A stretch of DNA of 64,000 bases, taken from contig MHWB01000011.1 in the NCBI GenBank assembly GCA_001823925.1, positions 25,471 to 89,470 of the forward strand, in the 5' to 3' direction. The notes under the pieces are model-generated. The model did not search any database. It was given only the letters and a program-made list of their open reading frames with translations, and was not told the DNA's origin. The translations under genes and the position numbers were made by a program. Positions 5,061 through 37,994 of this stretch are shown here, piece by piece. Within the stretch, counting starts at the first letter, position 1, and each line of letters starts with the position of its first letter. Origin of the DNA: Candidatus Zambryskibacteria bacterium RIFCSPLOWO2_01_FULL_39_39. Its GTDB lineage: Bacteria > Patescibacteriota > Minisyncoccia > Phycocordibacterales > WO2-35-19.

Positions 5061-7010
5061 TTATTGCACCACCCTTTCATCTCCCATTTTAAAACCTGGG
5101 TCTCCGGAAAAATCAGTAGTGACTTCTCCAGTCCTTGTTTCTATTTTTAAACCAGTTATCTTATCAATACCAGAAAGAGAGGCTCCACCCAAAAGGCTTG
5201 GGGTTTGCCCGATTTGACTTACACTAGGTAAGAATTCAAGCTGAAAATATATTTCCTTGGCGGGAGAATCGAAACCAGTATTTGGCAAAACAGATCCCAC
5301 ACTCCAAACAACTTCATTGCTCACAGGATTGAATGAAAAAATTTCGCTCGCTGGGCTTTTTATATTAGTCCACTTTACATAAGAAGGCAGGGTGGCTCTA
5401 ACTTCCACATTGCTTACCTGATTAAAAGAATTATTAATACTCCAGACCACAGTATACGTGGTGGGCGCATCAGCCTTTGGTGGTATTGGTCCAGAATTTT
5501 CCAAGTTGCCAGCAGATCTTACTATTTTTGATGAAAGAGTGATATCGGTTGCAAGAACAATTTTTCTTGTCTCAACAGAAGAAACCATCTCCACCGAACC
5601 AGACTCTAAAATCCTTTCACCCCTAGCTTTAATGGTTATTTCTATTTCAGGCCTAACGCCTTTGGCTATATTTGAATACAGAAGGGGTGTCAATCGAAAA
5701 GATAATCTTTCTTCAGAACCCGGCCCCATATCAGAAAGCCCTGGCACCAGACGTTTATCCCACAAAATAGTATCATTTGATGACTGAAAGAATCCATTAT
5801 TTCCCGGGAGAACCCCCGATCGATTAAAAGCTCCGCCCTTAAAAGTAACTTCAACTACTGTATTAAATAATCTAGATGGCAAATTATTTTTAACCGTAAA
5901 TTCGGTGCCAATCTGCTCACCACCTTGAGCGGCAAAATCCCCATCTCCTCCTTCAATAGACACATCTAGCCCAATAAAAGGCTTTTTTACCAAAATTGAT
6001 TCCACTGACTGCGAAAACGGCACGGCTATTTTCCTTTCATCATCTAGACTCCCCGTGCCCACGTTTATCTTAAAAACTTTTTCTTCATTGTCTTGCCCAA
6101 TAATACTTCCTTTTATTGTAATTGTTTTCTTTTCTCCAGAGTTAAGGCTTCCAAATCGCCAAATATTATTGTTATACGAGGCCTTGGGTGTCGCTTCTTT
6201 AAAAACAAAACCAAATGGATATTCAACATTAACCAAAAAATCGCCCACCTTATCTTTAGAGTTTGAGGCTACTTCTACATTAAAAGAGATCTCTTGATTT
6301 GAATTAACTTCTTTGGGATAAGTGGGGGTGATTATGACCGGAGCAGAACTTATAGATATTTCATGTATTTTCTCTTTATAAAAAAGAGCGCTTGAATTTT
6401 CTACTCTATACTCTAAAGATATTTTCAATTGTTTCAACTCCTCTTTTTCTCCAAAGAAGACTACTTTAATATTTTGGTTGAAATCTTCTCCGGATTTTAT
6501 TTTATCCAAAGCAAATCTTTCTTGATCAAGTTCTTTAGTCAAATCGCTTACAGATCTCGTGCCCGCTGGATATTCTAACAGTAAGGAAGCGGAATCAAGA
6601 TCTACATTGTTGTTATTTATAATACTTATATCAAACGACACCTCTTGCCCACCTCCCACCGAAAGCGGTCCTACCACTTTTATATCAACATTTTTTGAGG
6701 AAATAGAGTTCACGCCACCAAAAAACACAAAGATGGCCACACCACAAGCGGCCACAAAAAACAAAGTGGAAAATATGAAAATTTTATTTATGAAGTTGTG
6801 TTTTTTCTGAGCCATTTTTGATACTTTAGCCGCTAACTCGTCAAAACCATTGCTTTTTGCGTTTTGCCAATTTTCTTTTATTCCCTCTGGTTCTTCTATT
6901 CGAGGATTAAATTCTGACCTCTCAGTGTGATCGATATTAGAGATATTTCTAGAATATAATTTTCTTTCAAGTCTTTCTAGCTTTTCTTTTTTTTCATCAT
7001 TGAATTCCAT
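5061..7010 (-). CDS. Hypothetical membrane-anchored protein with a large extracytoplasmic region
   Basis: 649 aa; a single TM near residues 75-100; no recognised domain. Confidence 0.4.
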   Translation of the reverse strand: MEFNDEKKEKLERLERKLYSRNISNIDHTERSEFNPRIEEPEGIKENWQNAKSNGFDELAAKVSKMAQKKHNFINKIFIFSTLFFVAACGVAIFVFFGGVNSISSKNVDIKVVGPLSVGGGQEVSFDISIINNNNVDLDSASLLLEYPAGTRSVSDLTKELDQERFALDKIKSGEDFNQNIKVVFFGEKEELKQLKISLEYRVENSSALFYKEKIHEISISSAPVIITPTYPKEVNSNQEISFNVEVASNSKDKVGDFLVNVEYPFGFVFKEATPKASYNNNIWRFGSLNSGEKKTITIKGSIIGQDNEEKVFKINVGTGSLDDERKIAVPFSQSVESILVKKPFIGLDVSIEGGDGDFAAQGGEQIGTEFTVKNNLPSRLFNTVVEVTFKGGAFNRSGVLPGNNGFFQSSNDTILWDKRLVPGLSDMGPGSEERLSFRLTPLLYSNIAKGVRPEIEITIKARGERILESGSVEMVSSVETRKIVLATDITLSSKIVRSAGNLENSGPIPPKADAPTTYTVVWSINNSFNQVSNVEVRATLPSYVKWTNIKSPASEIFSFNPVSNEVVWSVGSVLPNTGFDSPAKEIYFQLEFLPSVSQIGQTPSLLGGASLSGIDKITGLKIETRTGEVTTDFSGDPGFKMGDERVVQ

Positions 7011-7626: not shown

Positions 7627-10600
7627 TTATTTAATTTTAATTTTCAATTTATAATTTTCAATTTTCAACTCTTCTCCGTCGTTTTCAGCAAAAATAATTT
7701 CATTTATATTAGTTGGTTTTTTAATTTCCGAAATAACAGAGTTCAAAAATTCTTTACCCACATTGTCCGTCTCCACCAAAAGCTCTATTGCGTCAGCTGG
7801 CATTAAATTTTTATTCTTACGAAGTTCTTGAACAGCTCTTATAAAACTTCTTAGATCACCCTCTTTTTGCAATTCTTTTGTTATTTTTGTGTCCAACTCC
7901 ACTTCTGTTTCTAAATTTTCCTGGAAGATTATTTTTTTAACATTAACTTCATCCTTTATTAATTCCAAATATTCTTCTTTATCTTTCAATTTTAAATCTT
8001 TAATTTTTAATTTACTAAGAGGTTGTCTTACTTTTATATTGGCCGTCATTCTTTTTTCTAACGCTAAAGAAACTGTTTTTCTTACCTCTTGCATCATTTC
8101 CAAAATTTCTGCGAAATGGAGCCCTTCGACTTCGCTCAGGACGGGCCAACTGCAAAGATGGACACTCTCTGGATCATTTGGAAATTTTAATTTCAAATAA
8201 ATATGTTCAGCAAAAAATGGAGTAAGTGGTGCCATATATTTTGCCAATTCTAATAAAACAAAGCGAGTGGTTGAGAGCACATTATTTTTGTCTTTTATGT
8301 CTTCCGATTTAAATCTATCTCTTGAGCGTCTAATATACCAAGTAGAAAAATCTTCAATAAAATTCAGGATGGGACGGGTTGCGCCGTAAATATCACAAAC
8401 ATTAAGTGCTTTGGTTATTTCTTTATGGAGTTCACTTAAGCGAACCAAAATCCATCTGTCCAAAACATGTTCCGACTCTTGATTATTTTCAACAACTTTT
8501 TTGTCAGAATACATTTCATAAAACGAAAGTACATTTTCAAGTTTTAAAATAACTTTTTTTGAAACTTCATCTACCCCTTTTTCAGAAAAATTTAAATCCT
8601 CGGCTTTCATGACCGGAGTTGACATGAGATAATATCTCAAACTATCTGCTCCATATTTATCAACAATAACTGTCGGGTCTTGGTAATTTTTAAGCCTCTT
8701 GCTCATTTTTTTACCATCTTCTGCTAAAACAATGCCGTTGACTACCACATTATTAAAAACTTGTTTTCCAAACAAACTAGTTGCAAAAACATGCTGGTAA
8801 TAAAACCACTTACTAATCTGGTCAAGCCCTTCGGCAATAAAGTCGGCAGGAATACGACTTTCTACTTTTTCTTTATTTTCAAATGGATAATGGTAGGAGG
8901 AAAAAGGCACTGATCCAGAATCAAACCATGTGTCCAAAACATCAGTTACCCTTTTAAAAACTATGCCTTTGTCATTAACCAATTCTACCTCATCTATATA
9001 TGGCCTATGTAAATCAAGTTCGTAATTTTCGTTATGAGGAAGTGGTACAAAATTTAGTTCTCCAAATTCAGCAAACTCTGATTTATGTATTCCTTTTTCT
9101 TTTATTTCAATTGACCTGTTCAAATTTGCCCCCTCCGTCACCATATACATAGCCGCAATCGGACCATCGTGACTCACCAAAAGAATGTTTTTATCAGAAT
9201 ATTTTTTTTCAATATTAAAAAGTAGACCCCCCATTCTCTTATTTAAGTCAAGTAAAGTCTCTCCACCATCAGGTGCTTTTTCAAATCTTTCTCTCATATT
9301 TGCAAACAATTTCCAATATTCATCCCATTTTTTACCTTCAAAATCTGGTCCCTTTTTAAATTCTCCCAGCAAATCATCTACTTTGACATCCTCTTTACTT
9401 AAATCTAAAGCTTGGCGCACAATTTCTGCAGTTTCAAGACATCTTTCAAAAGGAGAAGTAATTATTAAATCAATTTTTTCTTTTTTTATATCTTGGGCAA
9501 CAGTCTGTACTTGCTTTCTACCTTCCTTGGTTAAGGGAAAAATATTTTGGGGATCTGAATTTATAATATCCGAAATATTTTGCTCGGCTTCTCCATGTCT
9601 CATTACAAAATATTTATTGCCAGATTTTTTGGTATATTTTTGTAGCTCTTCAACTGACCCGATCACTAACCTTTCCTCTGTTTTTTCATTTTCCCAAACA
9701 GGAATAGTGTTTGCCCAAAAACGCTGTCTGCTAATAGACCAGTCACGAGCATTTTCTAACCAACTATGCCAACGACCTTCTTTGATGTGTTTTGGTTGCC
9801 AATTTATATTTTCTGCGTACTCAAGAAGATCTTTTTTTATTTTTGAAACTGAAACAAACCAGGAACTGGTGGCATAATTTAAAAGCGGAGTTTCGCACCT
9901 CCAACAGTGTGGGTATGAGTGCTCATATTTTTCCTTAGAGAAAAGGAGATTTTTTTGAGCTAATATTTTCAAAACCTCCACATCAGTTTTTTGTGGATCC
10001 TCTATTGGTTTTACAGAAAGCCCAGCCAAATCGAGAACCTCCGATCTTATAATGCCATCCATACCAACATGTTGAACAAACGGTAATTTTTCTTTTTTAC
10101 CAAGTTCCATATCATCTTCCCCAAAAGCAGGGGCAATATGAACCACCCCCGTACCACTTTCAGTGGTCACGAACGAAGTGGCATAAATCTTCCAACCATT
10201 TTTTCTATTTTCTAATGTCTTACTTTTTGAATAATCATCAAAAATTGGTTTGTAAGATTTGCCAACTAAATCTTTGCCTTTAAACTCTTCAACAATCTCA
10301 AACTTATCCTCTTTAAAAATTTCTTTGAGCTTTTCTTTAATGAGAATAAATCTAGTGAGATTTTCCATGGTCTCATCTTTCTTTTCTATTTTTACATAAA
10401 TAAAATCTGGGTTTACTGCCAAGGCAACATTGCCAGGCAGAGTCCATGGGGTAGTTGTCCAAGCCAAAATAAAAGTATTCGGTTCATCCACTAATTCAAA
10501 TTTAGCTGTTACCGCGATATCTTTAATATCTTTATAGCCTTCTGCTACTTCTGCTTGAGCTAGTGTAGTCTCACAACGCGGACAAATATACATTGATCGA

Positions 10601-11130
10601 TAATCTTTATAAATTAAACCTTTATCAAATAATTTTTTAAAAGCCCACCACTCTGACTCCATATAAGAAGCGTCCATCGTTCGATAAGGACTATCCATAT
10701 TTACCCACCGTCCAAAGCGTGGAATAAACTTATTCCAAACATCGACATAAGTAAAAATTTTATCTCGACAAAGATTATTAAATTTGCCAATTCCTATTTC
10801 TTCAATTTCTTTTTTACTTTTGATACCTAATTCCTTTTCAACAATATTTTCAATTGGTAGACCGTGTGTATCCCAGCCCCACCGCCTCTCAACGAAGCGC
10901 CCCCGCATTGTCTGATAGCGCGGAATCACATCTTTCATAACACTTGCTACCAAGTGGCCATAGTGAGGTGTTCCGGTAGCAAATGGAGGTCCATCATGAA
11001 AAACAAAAGGTTTATTATTTTTTGTTTGCTCTAGAGATTTTTCAAAAATTTTGTTATCTTCCCAGAATTTCAGTATTTCTTCTTCTCTTTCGGCTATTTT
11101 TGACTTTTGGTTTCCCTCTATCATACTCAA
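7627..11130 (-). CDS. ileS: Isoleucyl-tRNA synthetase carrying an internal histidine-phosphatase (PGM-like) domain insertion
   Basis: HYGH and KMSKRL motifs, WCISRQR-like WSISRQRFW. Residues ~505-690 (nt ~9061-9618) are a complete RHG histidine-phosphatase domain (FVMRHGEAEQN ... LVSHDGPI). Confidence 0.9.
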   Translation of the reverse strand: MSMIEGNQKSKIAEREEEILKFWEDNKIFEKSLEQTKNNKPFVFHDGPPFATGTPHYGHLVASVMKDVIPRYQTMRGRFVERRWGWDTHGLPIENIVEKELGIKSKKEIEEIGIGKFNNLCRDKIFTYVDVWNKFIPRFGRWVNMDSPYRTMDASYMESEWWAFKKLFDKGLIYKDYRSMYICPRCETTLAQAEVAEGYKDIKDIAVTAKFELVDEPNTFILAWTTTPWTLPGNVALAVNPDFIYVKIEKKDETMENLTRFILIKEKLKEIFKEDKFEIVEEFKGKDLVGKSYKPIFDDYSKSKTLENRKNGWKIYATSFVTTESGTGVVHIAPAFGEDDMELGKKEKLPFVQHVGMDGIIRSEVLDLAGLSVKPIEDPQKTDVEVLKILAQKNLLFSKEKYEHSYPHCWRCETPLLNYATSSWFVSVSKIKKDLLEYAENINWQPKHIKEGRWHSWLENARDWSISRQRFWANTIPVWENEKTEERLVIGSVEELQKYTKKSGNKYFVMRHGEAEQNISDIINSDPQNIFPLTKEGRKQVQTVAQDIKKEKIDLIITSPFERCLETAEIVRQALDLSKEDVKVDDLLGEFKKGPDFEGKKWDEYWKLFANMRERFEKAPDGGETLLDLNKRMGGLLFNIEKKYSDKNILLVSHDGPIAAMYMVTEGANLNRSIEIKEKGIHKSEFAEFGELNFVPLPHNENYELDLHRPYIDEVELVNDKGIVFKRVTDVLDTWFDSGSVPFSSYHYPFENKEKVESRIPADFIAEGLDQISKWFYYQHVFATSLFGKQVFNNVVVNGIVLAEDGKKMSKRLKNYQDPTVIVDKYGADSLRYYLMSTPVMKAEDLNFSEKGVDEVSKKVILKLENVLSFYEMYSDKKVVENNQESEHVLDRWILVRLSELHKEITKALNVCDIYGATRPILNFIEDFSTWYIRRSRDRFKSEDIKDKNNVLSTTRFVLLELAKYMAPLTPFFAEHIYLKLKFPNDPESVHLCSWPVLSEVEGLHFAEILEMMQEVRKTVSLALEKRMTANIKVRQPLSKLKIKDLKLKDKEEYLELIKDEVNVKKIIFQENLETEVELDTKITKELQKEGDLRSFIRAVQELRKNKNLMPADAIELLVETDNVGKEFLNSVISEIKKPTNINEIIFAENDGEELKIENYKLKIKIK

Positions 11131-11143
11131 AATATAGCATTTT

Positions 11144-12166
11144 CTAATCCTTTTTCAAAAGGTTTTTTATTCTTTCATTTATTTGAGTTTGTAACACAAA
11201 TTGATTTCCATGTTTCAATAAACCGCTATATGACATAAGTGAGCTTACATTTTCATTTTCGTTCAAAGCTTTTACAACTCTCCTCTTTGTCGCAGTCCTC
11301 AAAACTCTGTGGGTTGGGAAATGCCCCCAGCCCAGGAAATCAACACCAGAAGATAAAGTCTTTATGAATACCTTGTTGGGATGAAGCAAAAGTTTTAGAT
11401 TTTCTTCCAAGAATTCACTAATTTTATAAGTAAGTTCCAAAAGGTAGTATTTGTCTGTACTTAGTATCACAAAATCATCTGCATATCTTATATAATATTT
11501 TACTTTCATTTGATGCTTCATCCAACTATCAAACTCATTCATGTATATGTTTACTAAAAGTTGAGATGTTAAATTTCCTAAAGGTAAGCCAACACTTTCT
11601 TTTCTAGAATCAAAACTTTTTATTACTCTCGCGAGCAGCCAAATTATCTCTTTGTCCTCTATGTGTTTGTTTAAAATATTTAAGAGAATGGTTTGATTTA
11701 TAGAAGCAAAGAACTTACGAATATCACACTTTAGAACCCAGCAAGTTTTTGTATTGTTTTTTGATACCTTTCTGCCAAAATCTCTAAATCTATTTATGGC
11801 TCTGTGAGTCCCTTTGTCTAGCCTGCAAGAATATGAATCATGTATAAAAAGTTTATCAAAGTATGGATACAGTATTTTATAGATTGCATGGTGCAAAAGC
11901 CTGTCCCTTACTATTGCCTTATGTATATTGCGAGGTTTGGGGTCTGAAATATTGAAGGCTTTGTAGCCAGCGTGGGTGTAGGTTTTTGTTTGGAGAGAAT
12001 TGTATAAAGAAATTATATTATCAAACAAATTTAACTGAAATTCCTGGGCATCTATTTTGTTTTTCTTTCCATTTAGAAACTCTTCCCAAGCTAGGAGCAG
12101 ATTTTCTATAGAAATGATATCTTTATAGTGAATAGAAGATTTTTTCATTTTATAATTAGAACACAA
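11144..12166 (-). CDS. Reverse transcriptase of a diversity-generating retroelement
   Basis: 340 aa; YADDFVIL motif 5; motif 4 is GLPLGNLTSQLLVNIYM (SQ in place of SP, the DGR RT hallmark). Confidence 0.85.
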   Translation of the reverse strand: MCSNYKMKKSSIHYKDIISIENLLLAWEEFLNGKKNKIDAQEFQLNLFDNIISLYNSLQTKTYTHAGYKAFNISDPKPRNIHKAIVRDRLLHHAIYKILYPYFDKLFIHDSYSCRLDKGTHRAINRFRDFGRKVSKNNTKTCWVLKCDIRKFFASINQTILLNILNKHIEDKEIIWLLARVIKSFDSRKESVGLPLGNLTSQLLVNIYMNEFDSWMKHQMKVKYYIRYADDFVILSTDKYYLLELTYKISEFLEENLKLLLHPNKVFIKTLSSGVDFLGWGHFPTHRVLRTATKRRVVKALNENENVSSLMSYSGLLKHGNQFVLQTQINERIKNLLKKD

Positions 12167-12182
12167 AAATTATTCCTATGAA

Positions 12183-12193
12183 CCCCCCCCCCC
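12183..12193. repeat. Homopolymeric C11 tract in the 46-bp divergent region between the RT and avd starts
   Basis: aacccccccccccgc read directly; the surrounding genome is AT-rich. Confidence 0.9.
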
Positions 12194-12212
12194 GCAATTA
12201 CAAGCAAAAAAT

Positions 12213-12572
12213 TTGGTGCCTGTGGTAATAAAATTGAAGGATAGTTATAAACTGTGGCAAGTTCTTTTAGCAATTCTACCCAAGACTTTGCGATATTCTA
12301 TGGGAATAAAAATAGATTCTCTTTTTGTTGAAGTGATAGAATACACATCCATGGCCAGCTTTTTAGAAAAAAGTGAGAAGTTGCCATATTTGAAAGTAGC
12401 TATAAGAAAAATAGATACTATAAAAATACTTCTTATGATTGTCTGGGAAAATAGAGGAATTGATGACAAAAAGTACATAACTATTTCTGAATCACTAAAT
12501 GAAGTGGGTAAAATGCTTGGTGGATGGAGCGGACAGCTTATAAAATCAGCCTCCGTTAAAACTTCGGCCTGA
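12213..12572 (+). CDS. avd: Four-helix-bundle protein of the 23S rRNA-IVS family; putative DGR accessory variability determinant (Avd)
   Basis: 119 aa; C-terminal ISESLNEVGKMLGGW matches the four-helix-bundle/Avd family; adjacent to RT and TR1. Confidence 0.55.
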   Translation: MVPVVIKLKDSYKLWQVLLAILPKTLRYSMGIKIDSLFVEVIEYTSMASFLEKSEKLPYLKVAIRKIDTIKILLMIVWENRGIDDKKYITISESLNEVGKMLGGWSGQLIKSASVKTSA

Positions 12573-12583
12573 CAAAGCAAAAC

Positions 12584-12604
12584 TCTCCCAAGAAATAGGG
12601 AGAG
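12584..12604. other. GC hairpin (ctctccc-aagaaata-gggagag) directly 3' of TR1 in the minus-strand RNA sense
   Basis: 7-bp perfect stem, followed on the minus strand by a U-rich run. Confidence 0.5.
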
Positions 12605-12616
12605 AAATGAAGAGAG

Positions 12617-12717
12617 TTGCGACGCCCCGCAAACCAGATATTGCCATTCCAGTTGCTGTCGTTACTGTTCACATTGACCTTGCGCTCATCACCGTTCCGG
12701 TTGAAGTAGACGTAACT
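12617..12717 (-). repeat. DGR template repeat TR1
   Basis: 101 bp, homologous to 13072-13172. All ~20 mismatches have T on the + strand here (A in the minus-strand sense). In-frame translation is Asn-rich. Confidence 0.85.
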
Positions 12718-12983
12718 CTGTACAAAAAACCCTCTATGCCACCACCCCTTGAAATTTTTTTAAAATAACTCGGAGTTGAATTTTATTTCGCATCATAATG
12801 CGATGGTATTCTGTACCAAGTATCTTCATTTTTTATTGAAGTTTCTACATACACCACCCTACCAAAAACCGTGATCCCCGATATTCTCGATGTATGAATA
12901 CTGGATTCGGTGGCAAGCATCCATAAACACTTGCTGATATTCACCTACTACCATATTTATATTAGCAAAATTTTGATAAATAG

Positions 12984-13067: not shown

Positions 13068-13682
13068 CTACTTGCGACGCCCCGCAAACCAGAGAGAGCC
13101 AAGCCAGAAGCTGACGAGACTGTCCACATGGACCTTGCGCCCATCACCGCGCCGGTAGAAGTAGACGTAACTGTTCTTTGCCCACTGCATCCCGTTGGGA
13201 TGTTTATCGGCAAAAGCCTGGTCATCTGCATTCACCTGCATTTGGGCTGCGTAGTCCGGGACAAGCCCACGTTCCTCAAACACTCGTGAAATGTCGGCGA
13301 CAGGGGTGTCTTTCTCGAGCGGGAAGAAGAGTAGGTCACCTTCTTCCGGGCCGTCCATGGGCATAGTCGCGAGGACTGTCTCGTCGACGTACCATGGTAC
13401 ACGATTGCAAGCAGAAAGTAATTGAGCCGGAGTTTTCGTCCGATCCACCTTGAAGTGGCGGATGATCACTTTAGCACGATGCTCGACGCGAGTTTTCAAC
13501 GACTCGATAAACTCTGCAATGAGTTCCTCCATCTCGTCATCTGAAACGCCTTGCACTATGTCTTTTGGGAAATTGGTACCGGCTTTCGGAAACTTGGCGA
13601 CAAATCGATCACCAATCTGTCGTGCCTGTTCCTGGGTCATTGTTTCTGTGGTTGCAATGGTTTTTTGTTCCATCGGTTGCAC
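13068..13682 (-). CDS. DGR variable target protein 1; VR at the extreme C-terminus; GC-rich gene; no signal peptide
   Basis: 204 aa; the C-terminal 34 codons are VR1; GC clearly higher than the flanks. Confidence 0.8.
   Translation of the reverse strand: MQPMEQKTIATTETMTQEQARQIGDRFVAKFPKAGTNFPKDIVQGVSDDEMEELIAEFIESLKTRVEHRAKVIIRHFKVDRTKTPAQLLSACNRVPWYVDETVLATMPMDGPEEGDLLFFPLEKDTPVADISRVFEERGLVPDYAAQMQVNADDQAFADKHPNGMQWAKNSYVYFYRRGDGRKVHVDSLVSFWLGSLWFAGRRK
13072..13172 (-). repeat. DGR variable repeat VR1
   Basis: Pairs with TR1; differs only at TR adenine positions; sits at the 3' end of the target ORF. The IMH-like end tttgcggggcgtcgcaa is shared with TR1. Confidence 0.85.
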
Positions 13683-13850: not shown

Positions 13851-14426
13851 TTATTTTTTAGGAAGTTTAAAATATTTACGGAGCCAATCGTCATTTTCAA
13901 TTAATTCAACTGTCATATAAATAACATCGTCCCCTATTTCTAAATAAGTTTTTAAAAGATTGATCGCCCCTTCACATGGGTATGGATAGACCCAAACACT
14001 ATTTTGTAATCTTACAAATCCAAATTTTAAAAGCATATATCTCAGATCATCTCGTGAAAATCTTAAATTTTCTTTTATATCAAAGATAACTACTCTATAT
14101 TTTCCATCCCATTTTTTGGGTTTTTGTTTTGCCAAACCTTCAAATTCAAATTTAAGAAGTGATTTCTTACCCTCTGGAGTTAACTTGGCATATTTTTCTC
14201 CACTGGCTTTAGTAATCGTCTCAATCAGACCCCTTTTATAAAGTTTCTTTATTGCTGTATCAATATAATATTTTTGTCTATCTTCTCTTTTTTTATCAAG
14301 ATTAAGAAGTCTCAAAGCTTGCAGAGCATTGGGAGCAATCAAAGCAAAACTCATAAGAGCCGAGAGTCCAATGACCGCAAGTATTATATTTCTTACTGGT
14401 ATCCTTTCACCATAATCGTCTTTCAT
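13851..14426 (-). CDS. PaaX-like regulator: N-terminal TM, wHTH, C-terminal PaaX_C/Cas2-like fold
   Basis: WDGKYRVVIFDIKENLRFSRDDLRYMLLKFGFVRLQNSVWVYP resembles the PaaX family C-terminal motif. Confidence 0.4.
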   Translation of the reverse strand: MKDDYGERIPVRNIILAVIGLSALMSFALIAPNALQALRLLNLDKKREDRQKYYIDTAIKKLYKRGLIETITKASGEKYAKLTPEGKKSLLKFEFEGLAKQKPKKWDGKYRVVIFDIKENLRFSRDDLRYMLLKFGFVRLQNSVWVYPYPCEGAINLLKTYLEIGDDVIYMTVELIENDDWLRKYFKLPKK

Positions 14427-25570: not shown

Positions 25571-26515
25571 ATGCCAGAATTACCTGAAGTACATACAACA
25601 GTTGAGGGATTAAAGAAGGTGTTGATAGGAAAAACCATAAAAACAGTGTGGTCGGATTATTATGTGGCGACGGCGCACGGAGAAAGACAAACGATAAAAA
25701 ACAAAAAATATTTTGAAGCTTTCAAAAAGAAAGTTACTGGTTCAAAAATAATAGGGTTGGAAAGAAGGGGTAAAAATATACTTATACACTTAAGTAATAA
25801 ATATACTTTTATCATTCATATGAAAATGACGGGACATTTAATGTATGGAAAATACAGGAAAGCAGCTAGAAGCAAGAATCTAGAATCTAGAAAAGAAATT
25901 TGGAAAGCAGAAGAAAAAGGTCCACTACAAGATCCATACAATAGATTTTTACATTTTGTTTGCTCTCTTTCAGATGGTAAACATCTAGTCCTTTCGGATA
26001 CAAGAAAATTTGCTTCTATCACAATTACGGAGACAAAAAACTTACACCTTCATGAGAGTATAAGAAATTTGGGACATGAACCTCTAGACCCAAAATTTAA
26101 ATTAGAAAAATTATTAGAAATAATAAAGGCAAGAAAAAGTATGCCTATAAAATCCGCCCTCTTGGACCAGAGTGGTATAGCCGGTATAGGAAATATTTAT
26201 TCCGATGAAATACTTTGGAAAGTAGGTGTCCACCCCCTATCAAAATCTTCAAATATTCCAAATAAAAAAATAAGAGAGACTTATGATTTTATGAGAAAGA
26301 TCCTTAAGTTCTCCATAAACAAAGGTGGAGATTCAAAATCTGATTATAGAAACGCTCTTGGAGAAAAGGGTAGTTTCCAAAATTTTCATAAAGTTTACGG
26401 TAAAAAAGGAGGAAAATGTCCAAAAAAACATTGCTCGGGTATAATAGAGAGGATCGTAGTAAGGGGCCGAAGCGCCCACTTTTGCCCCAAACACCAAATA
26501 AAATATGGATACTAA
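25571..26515 (+). CDS. fpg: Formamidopyrimidine-DNA glycosylase (Fpg/Nei family)
   Basis: MPELPEV N-terminus; C-terminal zinc finger CPKKHCSG...CPKHQ. Confidence 0.85.
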   Translation: MPELPEVHTTVEGLKKVLIGKTIKTVWSDYYVATAHGERQTIKNKKYFEAFKKKVTGSKIIGLERRGKNILIHLSNKYTFIIHMKMTGHLMYGKYRKAARSKNLESRKEIWKAEEKGPLQDPYNRFLHFVCSLSDGKHLVLSDTRKFASITITETKNLHLHESIRNLGHEPLDPKFKLEKLLEIIKARKSMPIKSALLDQSGIAGIGNIYSDEILWKVGVHPLSKSSNIPNKKIRETYDFMRKILKFSINKGGDSKSDYRNALGEKGSFQNFHKVYGKKGGKCPKKHCSGIIERIVVRGRSAHFCPKHQIKYGY

Positions 26516-27437: not shown

Positions 27438-27483
27438 AATAAATCCCAAAATATATTAAAACGGCTTATTATAAACAAAATAC

Positions 27484-27510
27484 CCCGATCCGCAATTAAG
27501 CGAACCGGGG
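27484..27510. other. GC hairpin ccccg...cgggg directly 3' of TR2 (minus sense)
   Basis: Read directly. Confidence 0.45.
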
Positions 27511-27550
27511 CAAGAGACAAGGTATCAGAGAGACACAGCGTCTGTGTTTC

Positions 27551-27662
27551 GAAAGAAGAAGCGATTCTCGGTATTCCACTCATAGTCGTTGTCGAGGCGG
27601 TTCACGTTCACGTTCCACTGCCTGTCGTTGCGGTTCGCGTTGACAACCGAGACACTTTGTAC
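27551..27662 (-). repeat. DGR template repeat TR2 (unrelated in sequence to TR1)
   Basis: ~112 bp, homologous to 27915-28027. Every mismatch is T on + here (A in the minus sense). In-frame translation is Asn-rich: VVNANRNDRQWNVNVNRLDNDYEWNTENRFFFRN. Confidence 0.8.
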
Positions 27663-27848
27663 GCCTTGTCTTCTGCTACACCACCCATTGAATACTCGCA
27701 GGGTTGAATCGAATTCGGAGCATTGTATTCTAAACTCCATAACAAAGCGCACCAACTATTTCTTTTTTTGAAGCCGACAAGTATCGTCGGCTTTGAATCG
27801 CCACCCCAAGAGTTACCCAAAGATGCCAGCGTGTTCAAAAACATAATA

Positions 27849-27878
27849 CCCCCTCGCACGAACTTGGTGCAAGGGGGC
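27849..27878. other. GC hairpin ccccctcgcac-gaacttg-gtgcaaggggg ~35 bp downstream of VR2 (minus sense)
   Basis: 10-bp stem with one mismatch. Confidence 0.5.
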
Positions 27879-27903
27879 ATAGGAACAAAGTTTCCGAAAG
27901 GGA

Positions 27904-28602
27904 TCAGAGGGTCTTGTTGCGAAAGAAGAAGCGATCCTCGGTATCCCACTCAGAGTCGTGGGCGAGGCGGCGCACGCTCACGCCCCACTGCCCGCCGCCG
28001 CGGTCCGCGCTGACAACCGAGACACTTGGTTCTTCACCTTCATTCTCGGCCTTCTCCTCCACGAAAAAGAAGTTGGCATAACCGTTGGTCCGAAGATCAA
28101 CGTCCTGTCCACCTTCTTGTTGCTCAATCAGAGTTTCGATGGTGGGTAGCGTTGTAACACAGCCCCGTTCCCTGAGAGTCTTAGCGAGCATTGGGATGTC
28201 GCCCGTAACCCCGAGGAAACTTTCAACGGCTTGCTTGAAAGTCGCTGGCGTGTTTAGTCGTTGGACGGAGAACTTGCTCTCCGGCTGAATTGACTGATCC
28301 TCCGGAAGCCATCCGTCCAGATCGGCGTCGCGGTAGCAATACCGCGTTTTGTCGATGAAGCAGTCGGCAGTCTTTTTCGCTCCCACAATCGCAACCTTGA
28401 CGGTCGCAACCAGCGAGAGAACCGATTTTACGACGATCTCAGCCGTTCCCTCGATAACCATCCTAACACGGGACAGAACATCCTCTTCGCACAAACTTTT
28501 GATTTGGCCATTGGTCCAATGACCACGCCGAAACGCGGCTTTCAGTTCTCCGGCCTGATCAACATCGAGCATCAAATTACTCATGGTTGTCTCCTTTTGC
28601 AA
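27904..28602 (-). CDS. DGR variable target protein 2; VR at the C-terminus; GC-rich; no signal peptide
   Basis: 232 aa; the C-terminal ~37 codons are VR2. Confidence 0.75.
   Translation of the reverse strand: MQKETTMSNLMLDVDQAGELKAAFRRGHWTNGQIKSLCEEDVLSRVRMVIEGTAEIVVKSVLSLVATVKVAIVGAKKTADCFIDKTRYCYRDADLDGWLPEDQSIQPESKFSVQRLNTPATFKQAVESFLGVTGDIPMLAKTLRERGCVTTLPTIETLIEQQEGGQDVDLRTNGYANFFFVEEKAENEGEEPSVSVVSADRGGGQWGVSVRRLAHDSEWDTEDRFFFRNKTL
27915..28027 (-). repeat. DGR variable repeat VR2
   Basis: Pairs with TR2; VVSADRGGGQWGVSVRRLAHDSEWDTEDRFFFRN versus the N-rich TR translation. Confidence 0.8.
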
Positions 28603-28708
28603 CGGTGTTCTCTAGAACATTGTTACAACTTTCTAACTCTTATTATACAGCCAAAACACCTATTTTGTCAACCAAAATGATAAAAGTGGCTTAAAATAAG
28701 AGTTTTAT

Positions 28709-36668: not shown

Positions 36669-36950
36669 ATTTATTCTAAAATTAAAGTTATACACAAAAT
36701 AAATTGCTCGGAATTTGTTTTTGTGAATAATGGACTTAGAGAGATCCGAAAAATTAGGGATACAAATCTCTAAGCGGCACTTTCAATATTTAAACCGAAA
36801 GCAAAACATTATTCTGAGGAAAGAGCTAGTGGTCCCTCCCGAAAGATGGTACCGGCACTTCCTTGATTTAATGTCAAAATCCTATTGCTAGGACCGCCGC
36901 TTAGAGATTTATACCTCCAATTAAATTCAAATTCACCCAGAGTATATCAT

Positions 36951-37994
36951 ATGGCACAAAATATGTCAAGGAATAACAAGGAAAACAATACGGGGGGTGC
37001 AGAGGATAAGGATTTTGAATTTATTGATCAAACTTTGCGACCTTCTAAGTGGGACGAGTATATTGGTCAAGAAAACATCAAAAAAAATCTACAAATCCTT
37101 TTGGATGCCGCCAAGGAACGCAATCACCCACCAGAACATCTCTTATTTTACGGTCCACCCGGTCTTGGTAAAACCACTTTGGCCCATCTTATAGCCAAAG
37201 AAACCAGTAGTCAAATGCGTTCCACCTCCGGCCCAGCCATTGAAAAAGTTGGGGACTTAGCTTCTATACTTACTAATTTATCTCCTGGCGATATTCTGTT
37301 TATAGACGAGATTCACCGACTAAACAAATCTATTGAAGAGGTACTCTACCCCGCAATGGAATCAAGATCGTTAGATATTATTATTGGCAAAGGTCCTTCT
37401 GCCCGAACCATTCAACTTGAACTTCCCGCTTTTACTTTAATAGGAGCTACCACCAGGGTCGCTATGCTCTCTTCTCCTTTGCGTTCCAGATTCTCTGGTG
37501 GTGTTTTCCGACTTGAATTTTACAACCCAGATGAAATTATACAAATAATTAAACGTTCGGCAAATATTTTGGGGGTCTCCTTGTCTAGGGTGGCCGCAGA
37601 ATCTATCGCTGAAAGAAGTCGTTTTACACCAAGGACAGCCAACTATCTTTTAAAAAGAGCTAGAGACTATGCTCAGATCCAAAAAAGAGACATTGATGAG
37701 AGTATAGTTTCCGAAGCATTTAATCTTTTGGGTGTAGATACTGCTGGACTAAATGCCTCCGACCGATCACTTCTGTTAACCATAGCCAAAAAATTTGCCG
37801 GCGGACCGGTAGGACTTAACACTTTGGCCGCTTCCCTTTCCGAAGAAGAAGCAACCATTGAGGAATTTAACGAACCCTACCTTTTACAAATCGGGTTTGT
37901 GGAAAGAACTCCTCGCGGACGCACCCTCACCAAACATGCCTATAAACACTTGGGGTTAGATTTTCCAAAAGAAAAACAAGAAAAATTATTGTAA
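36951..37994 (+). CDS. ruvB: Holliday-junction helicase RuvB (the ORF track start 36885 is probably a spurious extension)
   Basis: LLFYGPPGLGKTTLAHLIAKE; sensor motifs. Confidence 0.9.
   Translation: MAQNMSRNNKENNTGGAEDKDFEFIDQTLRPSKWDEYIGQENIKKNLQILLDAAKERNHPPEHLLFYGPPGLGKTTLAHLIAKETSSQMRSTSGPAIEKVGDLASILTNLSPGDILFIDEIHRLNKSIEEVLYPAMESRSLDIIIGKGPSARTIQLELPAFTLIGATTRVAMLSSPLRSRFSGGVFRLEFYNPDEIIQIIKRSANILGVSLSRVAAESIAERSRFTPRTANYLLKRARDYAQIQKRDIDESIVSEAFNLLGVDTAGLNASDRSLLLTIAKKFAGGPVGLNTLAASLSEEEATIEEFNEPYLLQIGFVERTPRGRTLTKHAYKHLGLDFPKEKQEKLL

Follow-up and report, generated by a model that had tools for sequence, protein, structure and literature searches.

Which reverse transcriptase (RT) serves a diversity-generating retroelement (DGR) cassette that has none of its own? 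This question is raised by a stretch of 64,000 nucleotides from Candidatus Zambryskibacteria bacterium RIFCSPLOWO2_01_FULL_39_39 (assembly GCA_001823925.1, contig MHWB01000011.1, positions 25,471 to 89,470), hereafter termed the window, which harbors a template repeat (TR2) and a variable repeat (VR2) far from any RT gene. In a preliminary description of this DNA, the leading explanation was that the RT at position 11144 services a template unrelated to its own. It is not supported as the most likely one, as a second complete DGR of the same assembly, termed DGR3, holds an identical template beside its own RT. We therefore favor, with a probability of roughly 0.6, the reading that the TR2/VR2 pair, termed cassette 2, is a non-adjacent target of DGR3 that is accompanied by a redundant copy of the DGR3 template.

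The TR2/VR2 repeat pair

The window contains two DGR-type direct repeats without gaps, the first pairing 12617-12717 with 13072-13172 and the second pairing 27545-27660 with 27915-28030; no further copy of the latter repeat was found in the window. The second pair comprises TR2 and VR2 and is embedded in the following features:

27545-27660, minus strand: TR2, template repeat of 116 nt, identical to the template repeat of DGR3 (TR3), with 35 adenines, many of them in AAC codons
27915-28030, minus strand: VR2, variable repeat with 18 positions unlike TR2 and TR3, all of them template adenines
27904-28602, minus strand: target gene 2, encoding the variable protein A3A96_02995 (OHB01610.1, 226 aa; annotated start 28584), whose N-terminal part is helical and whose C-terminal C-type-lectin-like domain has VR2 at its end
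27846-27917, minus strand: 3′ flank of VR2, with the final codons KTL and the stop codon, an extended hairpin (27884-27917) and a terminator (27846-27880)
28642-28671, minus strand: sigma-70-type consensus promoter TTGACA-18-TATAAT upstream of target gene 2 (12/12 matches; a pattern match only)

TR2 and VR2 form one ungapped direct repeat of 116 nt with an offset of 370. The preliminary description had placed them at 27551-27662 and 27915-28027, with a length of about 112 bp and about 22 mismatches, all at template adenines. The pair itself and the restriction to adenines are correct, while the borders have to be moved to those listed above and the number of differences is 18. Read on the coding (minus) strand from TR2 to VR2, these comprise 12 changes of A to G and six of A to C, and none of A to T. 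All 18 fall on the 35 adenines among the 116 nt (hypergeometric P 8e-12), and the 81 non-adenine positions of the template are without exception the same in VR2. The in-frame translations of both repeats given earlier are likewise correct.

As already described and now confirmed from the reading frame, VR2 forms the C-terminal end of the open reading frame (ORF) 27904-28602, of which it represents the final 38 codons. It is thus located at the 3′ end of a coding target and in a C-type-lectin-like fold that tolerates variation, as expected for a DGR. The last 24 nt of VR2 (GAGGATCGCTTCTTCTTTCGCAAC) are shared with VR3, the variable repeat of DGR3, and include two adenine sites unlike the template, whose end (GAGAATCGCTTCTTCTTTCGAAAC) is distinct. 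By its sequence, this final segment of VR2 resembles an initiation of mutagenic homing (IMH) site and is here termed the IMH-like end. Stable hairpins follow downstream of both VR2 and VR3, corresponding to the inverted repeat of other DGRs, with a predicted function. The fold of the VR2 flank scores at z -4.9, and a terminator scan identified the element at 27846-27880 as a 14-bp hairpin with a T run. Neither an RT nor an Avd gene stands beside the template: in agreement with the earlier description, there is none within about 15 kb of TR2. Taken together, TR2/VR2 is a genuine hypermutation cassette without an RT of its own.

The complete DGR inside the window, DGR1, comprises these elements:

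11144-12166, minus strand: RT1 (A3A96_02845), a DGR-type reverse transcriptase (RVT_1 E 3.8e-25; LGNLTSQ motif in the translation)
12213-12572, plus strand, opposite to TR1 and RT1: avd1 (bAvd E 1.9e-7, 32 bits, below the curated cutoff of 40 bits)
12574-12807, minus strand: TR1 unit, with a leader element (12729-12807), TR1 (12617-12717) and the canonical 3′ element with a terminator-like hairpin (12574-12622)
13068-13682, minus strand: target gene 1 (A3A96_02855), with VR1 at 13072-13172

TR1 and VR1 differ at 16 positions, every one of them an adenine of TR1. No similarity between target proteins 1 and 2 was detected by BLASTP, and neither of them matched a Pfam family.

A second complete DGR with an identical template

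The RT at 11144 had been considered the only one, which holds true within the window and is untrue for the genome. The same assembly (locus-tag prefix A3A96) encodes a further RT, A3A96_03385 (RT3), 76 locus tags away from the VR2 gene, together with the target A3A96_03375. The earlier suggestion that a second RT lies outside the window is thereby borne out, whereas the ordinary second DGR foreseen for that case was not found: RT3 is not adjacent to TR2 and has a template and a target of its own, and TR2 represents an exact extra copy of TR3. The locus tags run from 02845 (RT1) via 02855 (target 1), 02995 (target 2) and 03375 (target 3) to 03385 (RT3), and the GenBank protein accessions follow in the same order (target 1 OHB01587, target 2 OHB01610, target 3 OHB01674, RT3 OHB01676). 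Moreover, the longest listed contig is 119,453 nt for RT1, RT3 and each of the three targets. Judged by the locus tags, DGR3 is probably part of the same 119-kb contig, past the right-hand border of the window, and the tag order would place it about 45-65 kb from cassette 2 in inverted orientation.

As a proxy for DGR3 we employed the contig L001, which encodes proteins identical to A3A96_03375 and A3A96_03385 and overlaps with the window only in the repeat itself. Its elements follow one another on one strand: first the paralogous target, which includes VR3, then TR3, avd3 in antisense and the gene for the 339-aa RT3. RT3 matches RVT_1 (E 5.8e-24), contains the LGNLTSQ motif and is 68% identical to RT1, and the majority allele of Avd3 matches bAvd (E 4.8e-6). 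The target protein A3A96_03375 (P0014) is a paralogue of the VR2 protein with 59% identity. VR3 differs from its template at 18 positions, 17 of which are TR adenines; the last is the first base of the flank.

Cassette 2 and L001 were compared by MAFFT alignment and exact-match extension, which revealed the following segments:

27546-27812, minus strand: block R, 267 nt, 100% identical to L001 10794-11060, consisting of a 151-nt TR leader and TR2
28012-28091, minus strand: 80-nt block identical to the paralogous target 3, made up of the 62 nt that precede VR2 and its initial 18 nt
27455-27544, minus strand: 3′ flank of TR2, of the VR type, with a hairpin (27515-27543) and a 13-bp terminator hairpin with a T run (27481-27512)
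27668-27735, minus strand: conserved TR-leader element of TR2, situated about 25 nt upstream of the TR and composed of a hairpin and a subsequent GGTGG

The 80-nt block looks like a gene-conversion patch, since identity drops to about 80% in the coding sequence farther upstream. From the VR to block R, the last codons and the terminator are strongly diverged from DGR3. Between VR2 and VR3 there are 18 differences, each at an adenine of the template, and VR2 matches the TR of this complete DGR at all non-adenine positions, which is the hallmark of a remote target. Since the two repeats depart from their common template, as well as from one another, only at adenines, both were generated from this one template by adenine-specific mutagenic retrohoming. 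Furthermore, the adenine sites differ while the neighboring blocks are free of substitutions, indicating that at least one homing event took place after the last homogenization of the two loci.

The preliminary description had proposed a comparison of the 3′ flanks of the two TRs in the window for a shared structure. When this comparison was performed, the 90-nt flank of TR2 proved unrelated to those of TR1 and TR3 (z ~0). In contrast, it is identical to the flank of VR3 at 72 of 89 positions (81%, z 19) and related to that of VR2 (z 8). The flanks of TR2, VR3 and VR2 share a fold with two hairpins, an extended one followed by a long terminator hairpin. TR2 is thus a hybrid: its 5′ side is canonical, its body equals TR3 and its 3′ side is of the VR type. 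Such a composition bears the imprint of TR-VR recombination.

The canonical surroundings of a template were defined on 32 related DGR loci of the candidate phyla radiation (CPR), which were gathered by a contig profile scan with an alignment of RT1 and RT3; the source genome is not among them. In nearly all of these loci, as well as in DGR1 and DGR3, the order is target with VR, about 450 nt, TR, antisense avd and RT. The motif GGGTGGTG-N16-GTACARAGT occurs in the window only before TR1 and TR2. A covariance model of the leader (R2), built from 15 other CPR DGR loci with the window and L001 left out, yielded only two significant matches in the window, namely the leader of TR2 (60.9 bits, E 1.8e-13) and that of TR1 at 12729-12807 (36.4 bits). 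A weak match at 36899-36955 on the plus strand (13 bits, E 0.38) is probably noise. In the 15 loci, all five pairs of the leader hairpin are supported by compensatory changes, and 95.7% of the cells are paired, versus 73.5% in shuffles and 31-63% with slid partners. The earlier statement that TR2 shares nothing obvious with TR1 therefore requires correction with respect to the common leader element and a stretch of 32 nt at 75% identity in the bodies; otherwise the two templates do differ.

RT-adjacent TRs are followed by a 3′ element consisting of CG[A/C]AAC, about 10 nt, a CTCCC-type hairpin and a T run. A model of this element (R1), derived from 18 other loci, matched the flanks of TR1 (29.9 bits, E 5.7e-8) and TR3 (22.4 bits), whereas it gave no match at the flank of TR2 up to E = 10. 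RNAalifold returned no consensus pairs for the MAFFT alignment of the 3′ flanks, since the stem arms are misaligned; R1 is therefore a sequence-only model. TR2 thus possesses the leader of a canonical RT-proximal template and lacks its 3′ element. The two elements together set RT-proximal templates apart from the TR2 copy and could mark template competence in CPR DGRs. At Rfam gathering thresholds, the window contains five tRNAs only and no known RNA family at TR1 or TR2, and promoter scans revealed no convincing promoter for either leader.

Mechanism, origin and alternative explanations

How would DGR3 act on a gene this distant? RT3, together with an Avd, would reverse-transcribe template RNA from TR3, and possibly from TR2 as well, with errors opposite to adenines. 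The cDNA would then replace VR2, with the IMH-like end that VR2 and VR3 have in common and the downstream hairpin as guides, and about a dozen surface codons of the C-type-lectin-like domain would be varied. TR2 adds no coding information because it is identical to TR3, and it may be a weaker or inactive template, given that the leader hairpin is kept and the 3′ element of RT-adjacent TRs is lacking.

The arrangement could have arisen from a remote VR, once devoid of a TR and equipped with its own tail and terminator, which suffered a break. Upon repair from the DGR3 locus, one end would have paired with VR3 and the other with TR3, so that tail, leader and TR were copied into the remote gene and the old 3′ flank of the VR was left behind TR2; later gene conversion would keep the two template copies identical. 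The contig L045 displays a DGR3 allele with the tail that is found after VR2, and a suitable donor for cassette 2 therefore exists in the population. An origin of TR2 by retrohoming of an over-long cDNA was considered as well and is unlikely, as the 267-nt block does not contain any adenine substitution.

Several observations weigh against the assignment of cassette 2 to DGR3. The placement of DGR3 on the same contig, its distance and its orientation are derived from locus tags and listed contig sizes. In L001, the version of the source strain, avd3 is frameshifted by a 1-nt insertion (GAGG for GAG, at about 11327), and RT3/Avd3 may consequently be crippled in this strain, unless the insertion is a sequencing error or Avd1 substitutes. 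The sequence itself does not tell TR3 from TR2 as the source of the cDNA or RT1 from RT3 as the enzyme; the degree of identity between the two RTs and the leader element common to their TRs add to this point. Moreover, the independent assemblies and contigs examined agree in their VR2 allele, save for one variant with a single changed base, and the alleles of VR3 and VR1 are equally static in the consensus of dozens of contigs. Finally, the hybrid contigs L002, L045 and L046 and the protein P0126 indicate that recombination, or else chimeric assembly, readily occurs in the repeat region.

The invariance of the VRs leads to the alternative that TR2/VR2, and perhaps DGR3 as a whole, is a fossil, in which VR2 is a frozen product of past retrohoming and gene conversion alone keeps TR2 identical to TR3. 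The near-invariance of VR2, VR3 and VR1 over dozens of contigs from several samples, the frameshift in avd3 of the source-strain version, the missing 3′ element of TR2 and the failure to find a consensus promoter for its leader are all in line with this notion. However, consensus contigs cannot reveal low-frequency variants, RT3, RT1, avd1 and both target ORFs are intact, and target gene 2 has a perfect consensus promoter. In addition, at least one homing event postdates the last homogenization of the adjacent 80-nt and 267-nt blocks, and the avd3 indel is missing from 12 of 13 contigs, so that we regard an inactive cassette as possible, albeit rather unlikely. An invariant VR2 alongside a variable VR1 had been put forward earlier as the sign of a dead cassette; at the contig level both are static. 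Across contigs the TR is constant and recombinant VR2 alleles are shared with VR3, and a metagenome scan for VR alleles, with N at each template adenine, returned one contig, identical to the window.

RT1 is a possible but unproven trans partner of cassette 2, and the preliminary explanation, according to which RT1/Avd1 (11144-12572) would service TR2 in trans and one RT would use two different templates, draws on the leader common to TR1 and TR2, on the 68% identity of the two RTs, on the shorter distance of about 15 kb and on an intact avd1 in a strain whose own version of avd3 is frameshifted. Yet a cognate RT located beside an identical TR in the same assembly makes such cross-use dispensable, the TR bodies and the IMH-like 3′ ends of the VRs differ, the target proteins bear no detectable similarity, and there is no demonstrated case of cross-use. 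We consequently deem this explanation quite improbable.

Could TR2 have been placed beside VR2 merely by a chimeric join through the repeat, with the DGR3 template being the only one in the genome? The RT3 contigs mostly end inside block R, and hybrid contigs exist. However, breaks within R are to be expected of short-read assemblers at a true two-copy repeat. Block R is found with two left flanks (tail 2 and tail 3) and with two right flanks (the VR-type tail with the gene for a 310-aa protein, and the TR3 flank with avd3), which requires two copies under any pairing, one of them without an RT. Furthermore, among 18 contigs with the target 2 protein, including GenBank LBVD01000002.1, and in one further JGI contig, stemming from several assemblers, the layout of the window (trmH, target 2, R, tail, 310-aa gene, fpg) is found again. 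Among the 18 contigs three distinct arrangements were displayed, two of which span the TR2 copy while the third ends inside the repeat. An assembly artefact is thus hardly credible.

The DGR3 reading leaves room for events beyond the single case. L002 (ENA ANAN16-1 scaffold_7202) joins the DGR3 target through block R to the 310-aa/fpg side of the window, which is the structure that an inversion between the inverted template copies should leave at one of its junctions. The 267-nt copies might mediate an inversion of 45-65 kb that swaps the RT-adjacent target, with L002 as one of its junctions. The reciprocal junction (target 2, R, avd3, RT3) was not found among 20 RT3 contigs, most of which break inside R. 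In the mosaics L002, L045 and L046, and likewise in the proteins P0124, P0126 and P0128, the N-terminal part, the VR allele, the tail and the downstream context are swapped; the mosaic contigs could equally be real recombinants or chimeric assemblies. A more general and tentative idea, which we think unlikely as yet, is that RT-less modules of target plus template spread by break repair with paired VR and TR; the copies thus formed, consisting of leader, TR and a VR-type flank, would be transcribed and used in trans by resident RT/Avd, possibly by either paralogous RT. If true, it would provide a route to expand and reshuffle the repertoire of DGR targets.

Neighboring features and comparison with known systems

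Among the neighbors of cassette 2, the RelE/RHH pair and trmH named earlier were found in the window as a ParE toxin with a DUF6290 antitoxin and as a SpoU methylase. The assignment of fpg is probably correct as well, since counterparts of the 314-aa ORF at 25571-26515 in near-identical loci carry the Fpg domains Fapy_DNA_glyco and H2TH. The N-terminus of target protein 2 is not hydrophobic, which agrees with the predicted cytoplasmic location. The target genes, including their non-variable parts, are islands of high GC content (0.51-0.54, with GC3 of 0.55-0.58), compared to about 0.32 for the RTs and 0.37 for the window. Such islands comprise 27904-28602 and 13068-13682 in the window, L001 10001-10705 and the targets in L011-L039, and the contrast between target and RT was seen in most related loci checked. 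A and T are both depleted, which argues against a simple loss of adenines.

The isoleucyl-tRNA synthetase adjoining RT1 (7627-11130, minus strand, 1167 aa) contains an inserted histidine-phosphatase-like segment (...YFVMRHGEAEQN...). A homologous gene of 1174 aa in another genome is annotated as tRNA-synt_1 plus His_Phos_1 and follows a target homologue downstream at a distance of 134 nt, and the interval contains neither TR nor avd nor RT. Directly beside target gene 1, a 191-aa protein (13851-14426, minus strand) matches the PaaX central Cas2-like domain (E 1e-17).

A run of C11 on the plus strand, corresponding to G11 on the RT strand, is located at 12183-12193 just upstream of avd1. Homopolymers of G7 to G12 in this very short divergent interval between avd and RT, close upstream of where the RT begins and directly before the avd frame on the other strand, are present in 24 of the 32 related CPR loci, with RT identities down to 44%, where other G or C runs usually do not exceed 5-6. 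They were located at 11444 in L001 (G9), at 11443 in L003 (G10) and 11-48 nt upstream of the RT match in L010-L041, and are often followed by a TAnAAT-like hexamer. The run could serve as a promoter spacer or as a phase-variation element, although the DGR3 locus has G10 in 12 of its 13 contigs. In the corresponding comparison of avd3 (L001 versus L003, L045 and L047-L056), the frameshift occurs only in the contig that matches the source-strain proteins, the other 12 being intact. The G-run of L001 is one base shorter as well, and the RT is called with 339 aa there versus 352 aa.

We also examined L012 as a candidate for another RT-less cassette. It contains a second target/TR unit at 5848-6800, 5 kb downstream of the RT, and the TR of this unit is followed by the G-run typical of an RT start. 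The candidate was rejected, as the unit is probably a tandem complete DGR that is truncated where the retrieved sequence ends. L012 and L019 stem from one metagenome-assembled genome (JBBTQO01), which thus has at least two DGR RTs, and several paralogous DGRs per small CPR genome seem to recur.

Taken together, the second DGR with an identical template accounts for cassette 2 and removes the anomaly of one RT serving two unrelated templates. The locus represents a clear case of a DGR target and template that were copied together, and the hybrid TR/VR flank records how. It further illustrates that DGR calls limited to a window or contig can mistake trans targets for orphan systems.

Non-adjacent targets as such are documented: 73 of them were assigned to 45 of 372 DGRs (Wu et al. 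2018, PMC5758913). In that study, candidate sites that were "part of another DGR" were dropped, and a TR-bearing site such as cassette 2 might therefore not be scored as a remote target. As in other DGRs with remote targets, for instance that of Treponema denticola, VR2 occupies the 3′ end of a gene that is remote from the RT, matches a distant TR at every non-adenine position and belongs to a target fold of the C-type-lectin type. Unlike these, the target of cassette 2 carries its own exact copy of the TR and its leader. Our literature search on DGRs with several TRs yielded nothing specific.

The closest parallel in genome organization is provided by Thiohalocapsa PB-PSB1, in whose genome related DGRs occur several times, some loci are incomplete and diversification in trans takes place (Dore et al. 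2024, PMC10907252). Some of its loci lack an RT and contain VRs that match the TR of another locus at all non-adenine sites, and one target of an RT-less locus is without current variability (PMC10907252). The multiplicity of related DGRs and an RT-less locus whose VR matches the TR of another locus are common to both genomes, whereas diversification was measured from reads in PB-PSB1 and the alleles of cassette 2 are those of consensus contigs. The hybrid 3′ flank of a TR copy is documented for cassette 2; the PB-PSB1 loci were not compared on this feature.

With the prototype, Bordetella phage BPP-1, the system described here shares the adenine-specific transfer from TR to VR, an IMH-like VR end unlike the TR end, an inverted repeat downstream of the VR (GC-rich in BPP-1) and the presence of Avd and RT. 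The inverted repeat is absent behind the TR end (IMH*) of BPP-1, which helps to tell donor from recipient (PMC5758913). TR2 deviates from this rule in that a TR-type end is followed by a VR-type inverted repeat. In further contrast to BPP-1, avd is located on the opposite strand, and the TR is succeeded by a short terminator-like element rather than by a long spacer running into the RT gene. The layout of target/VR, TR, antisense avd and RT appears to equal the architecture "B3", to which 90% of the CPR DGR set of Wu et al. 2018 (PMC5758913) belongs, and cassette 2 departs from such CPR-type cassettes by stopping after the TR. Within the documented class of remote targets, cassette 2 is thus distinguished by two particular features, the exact extra copy of the template and its hybrid flank.

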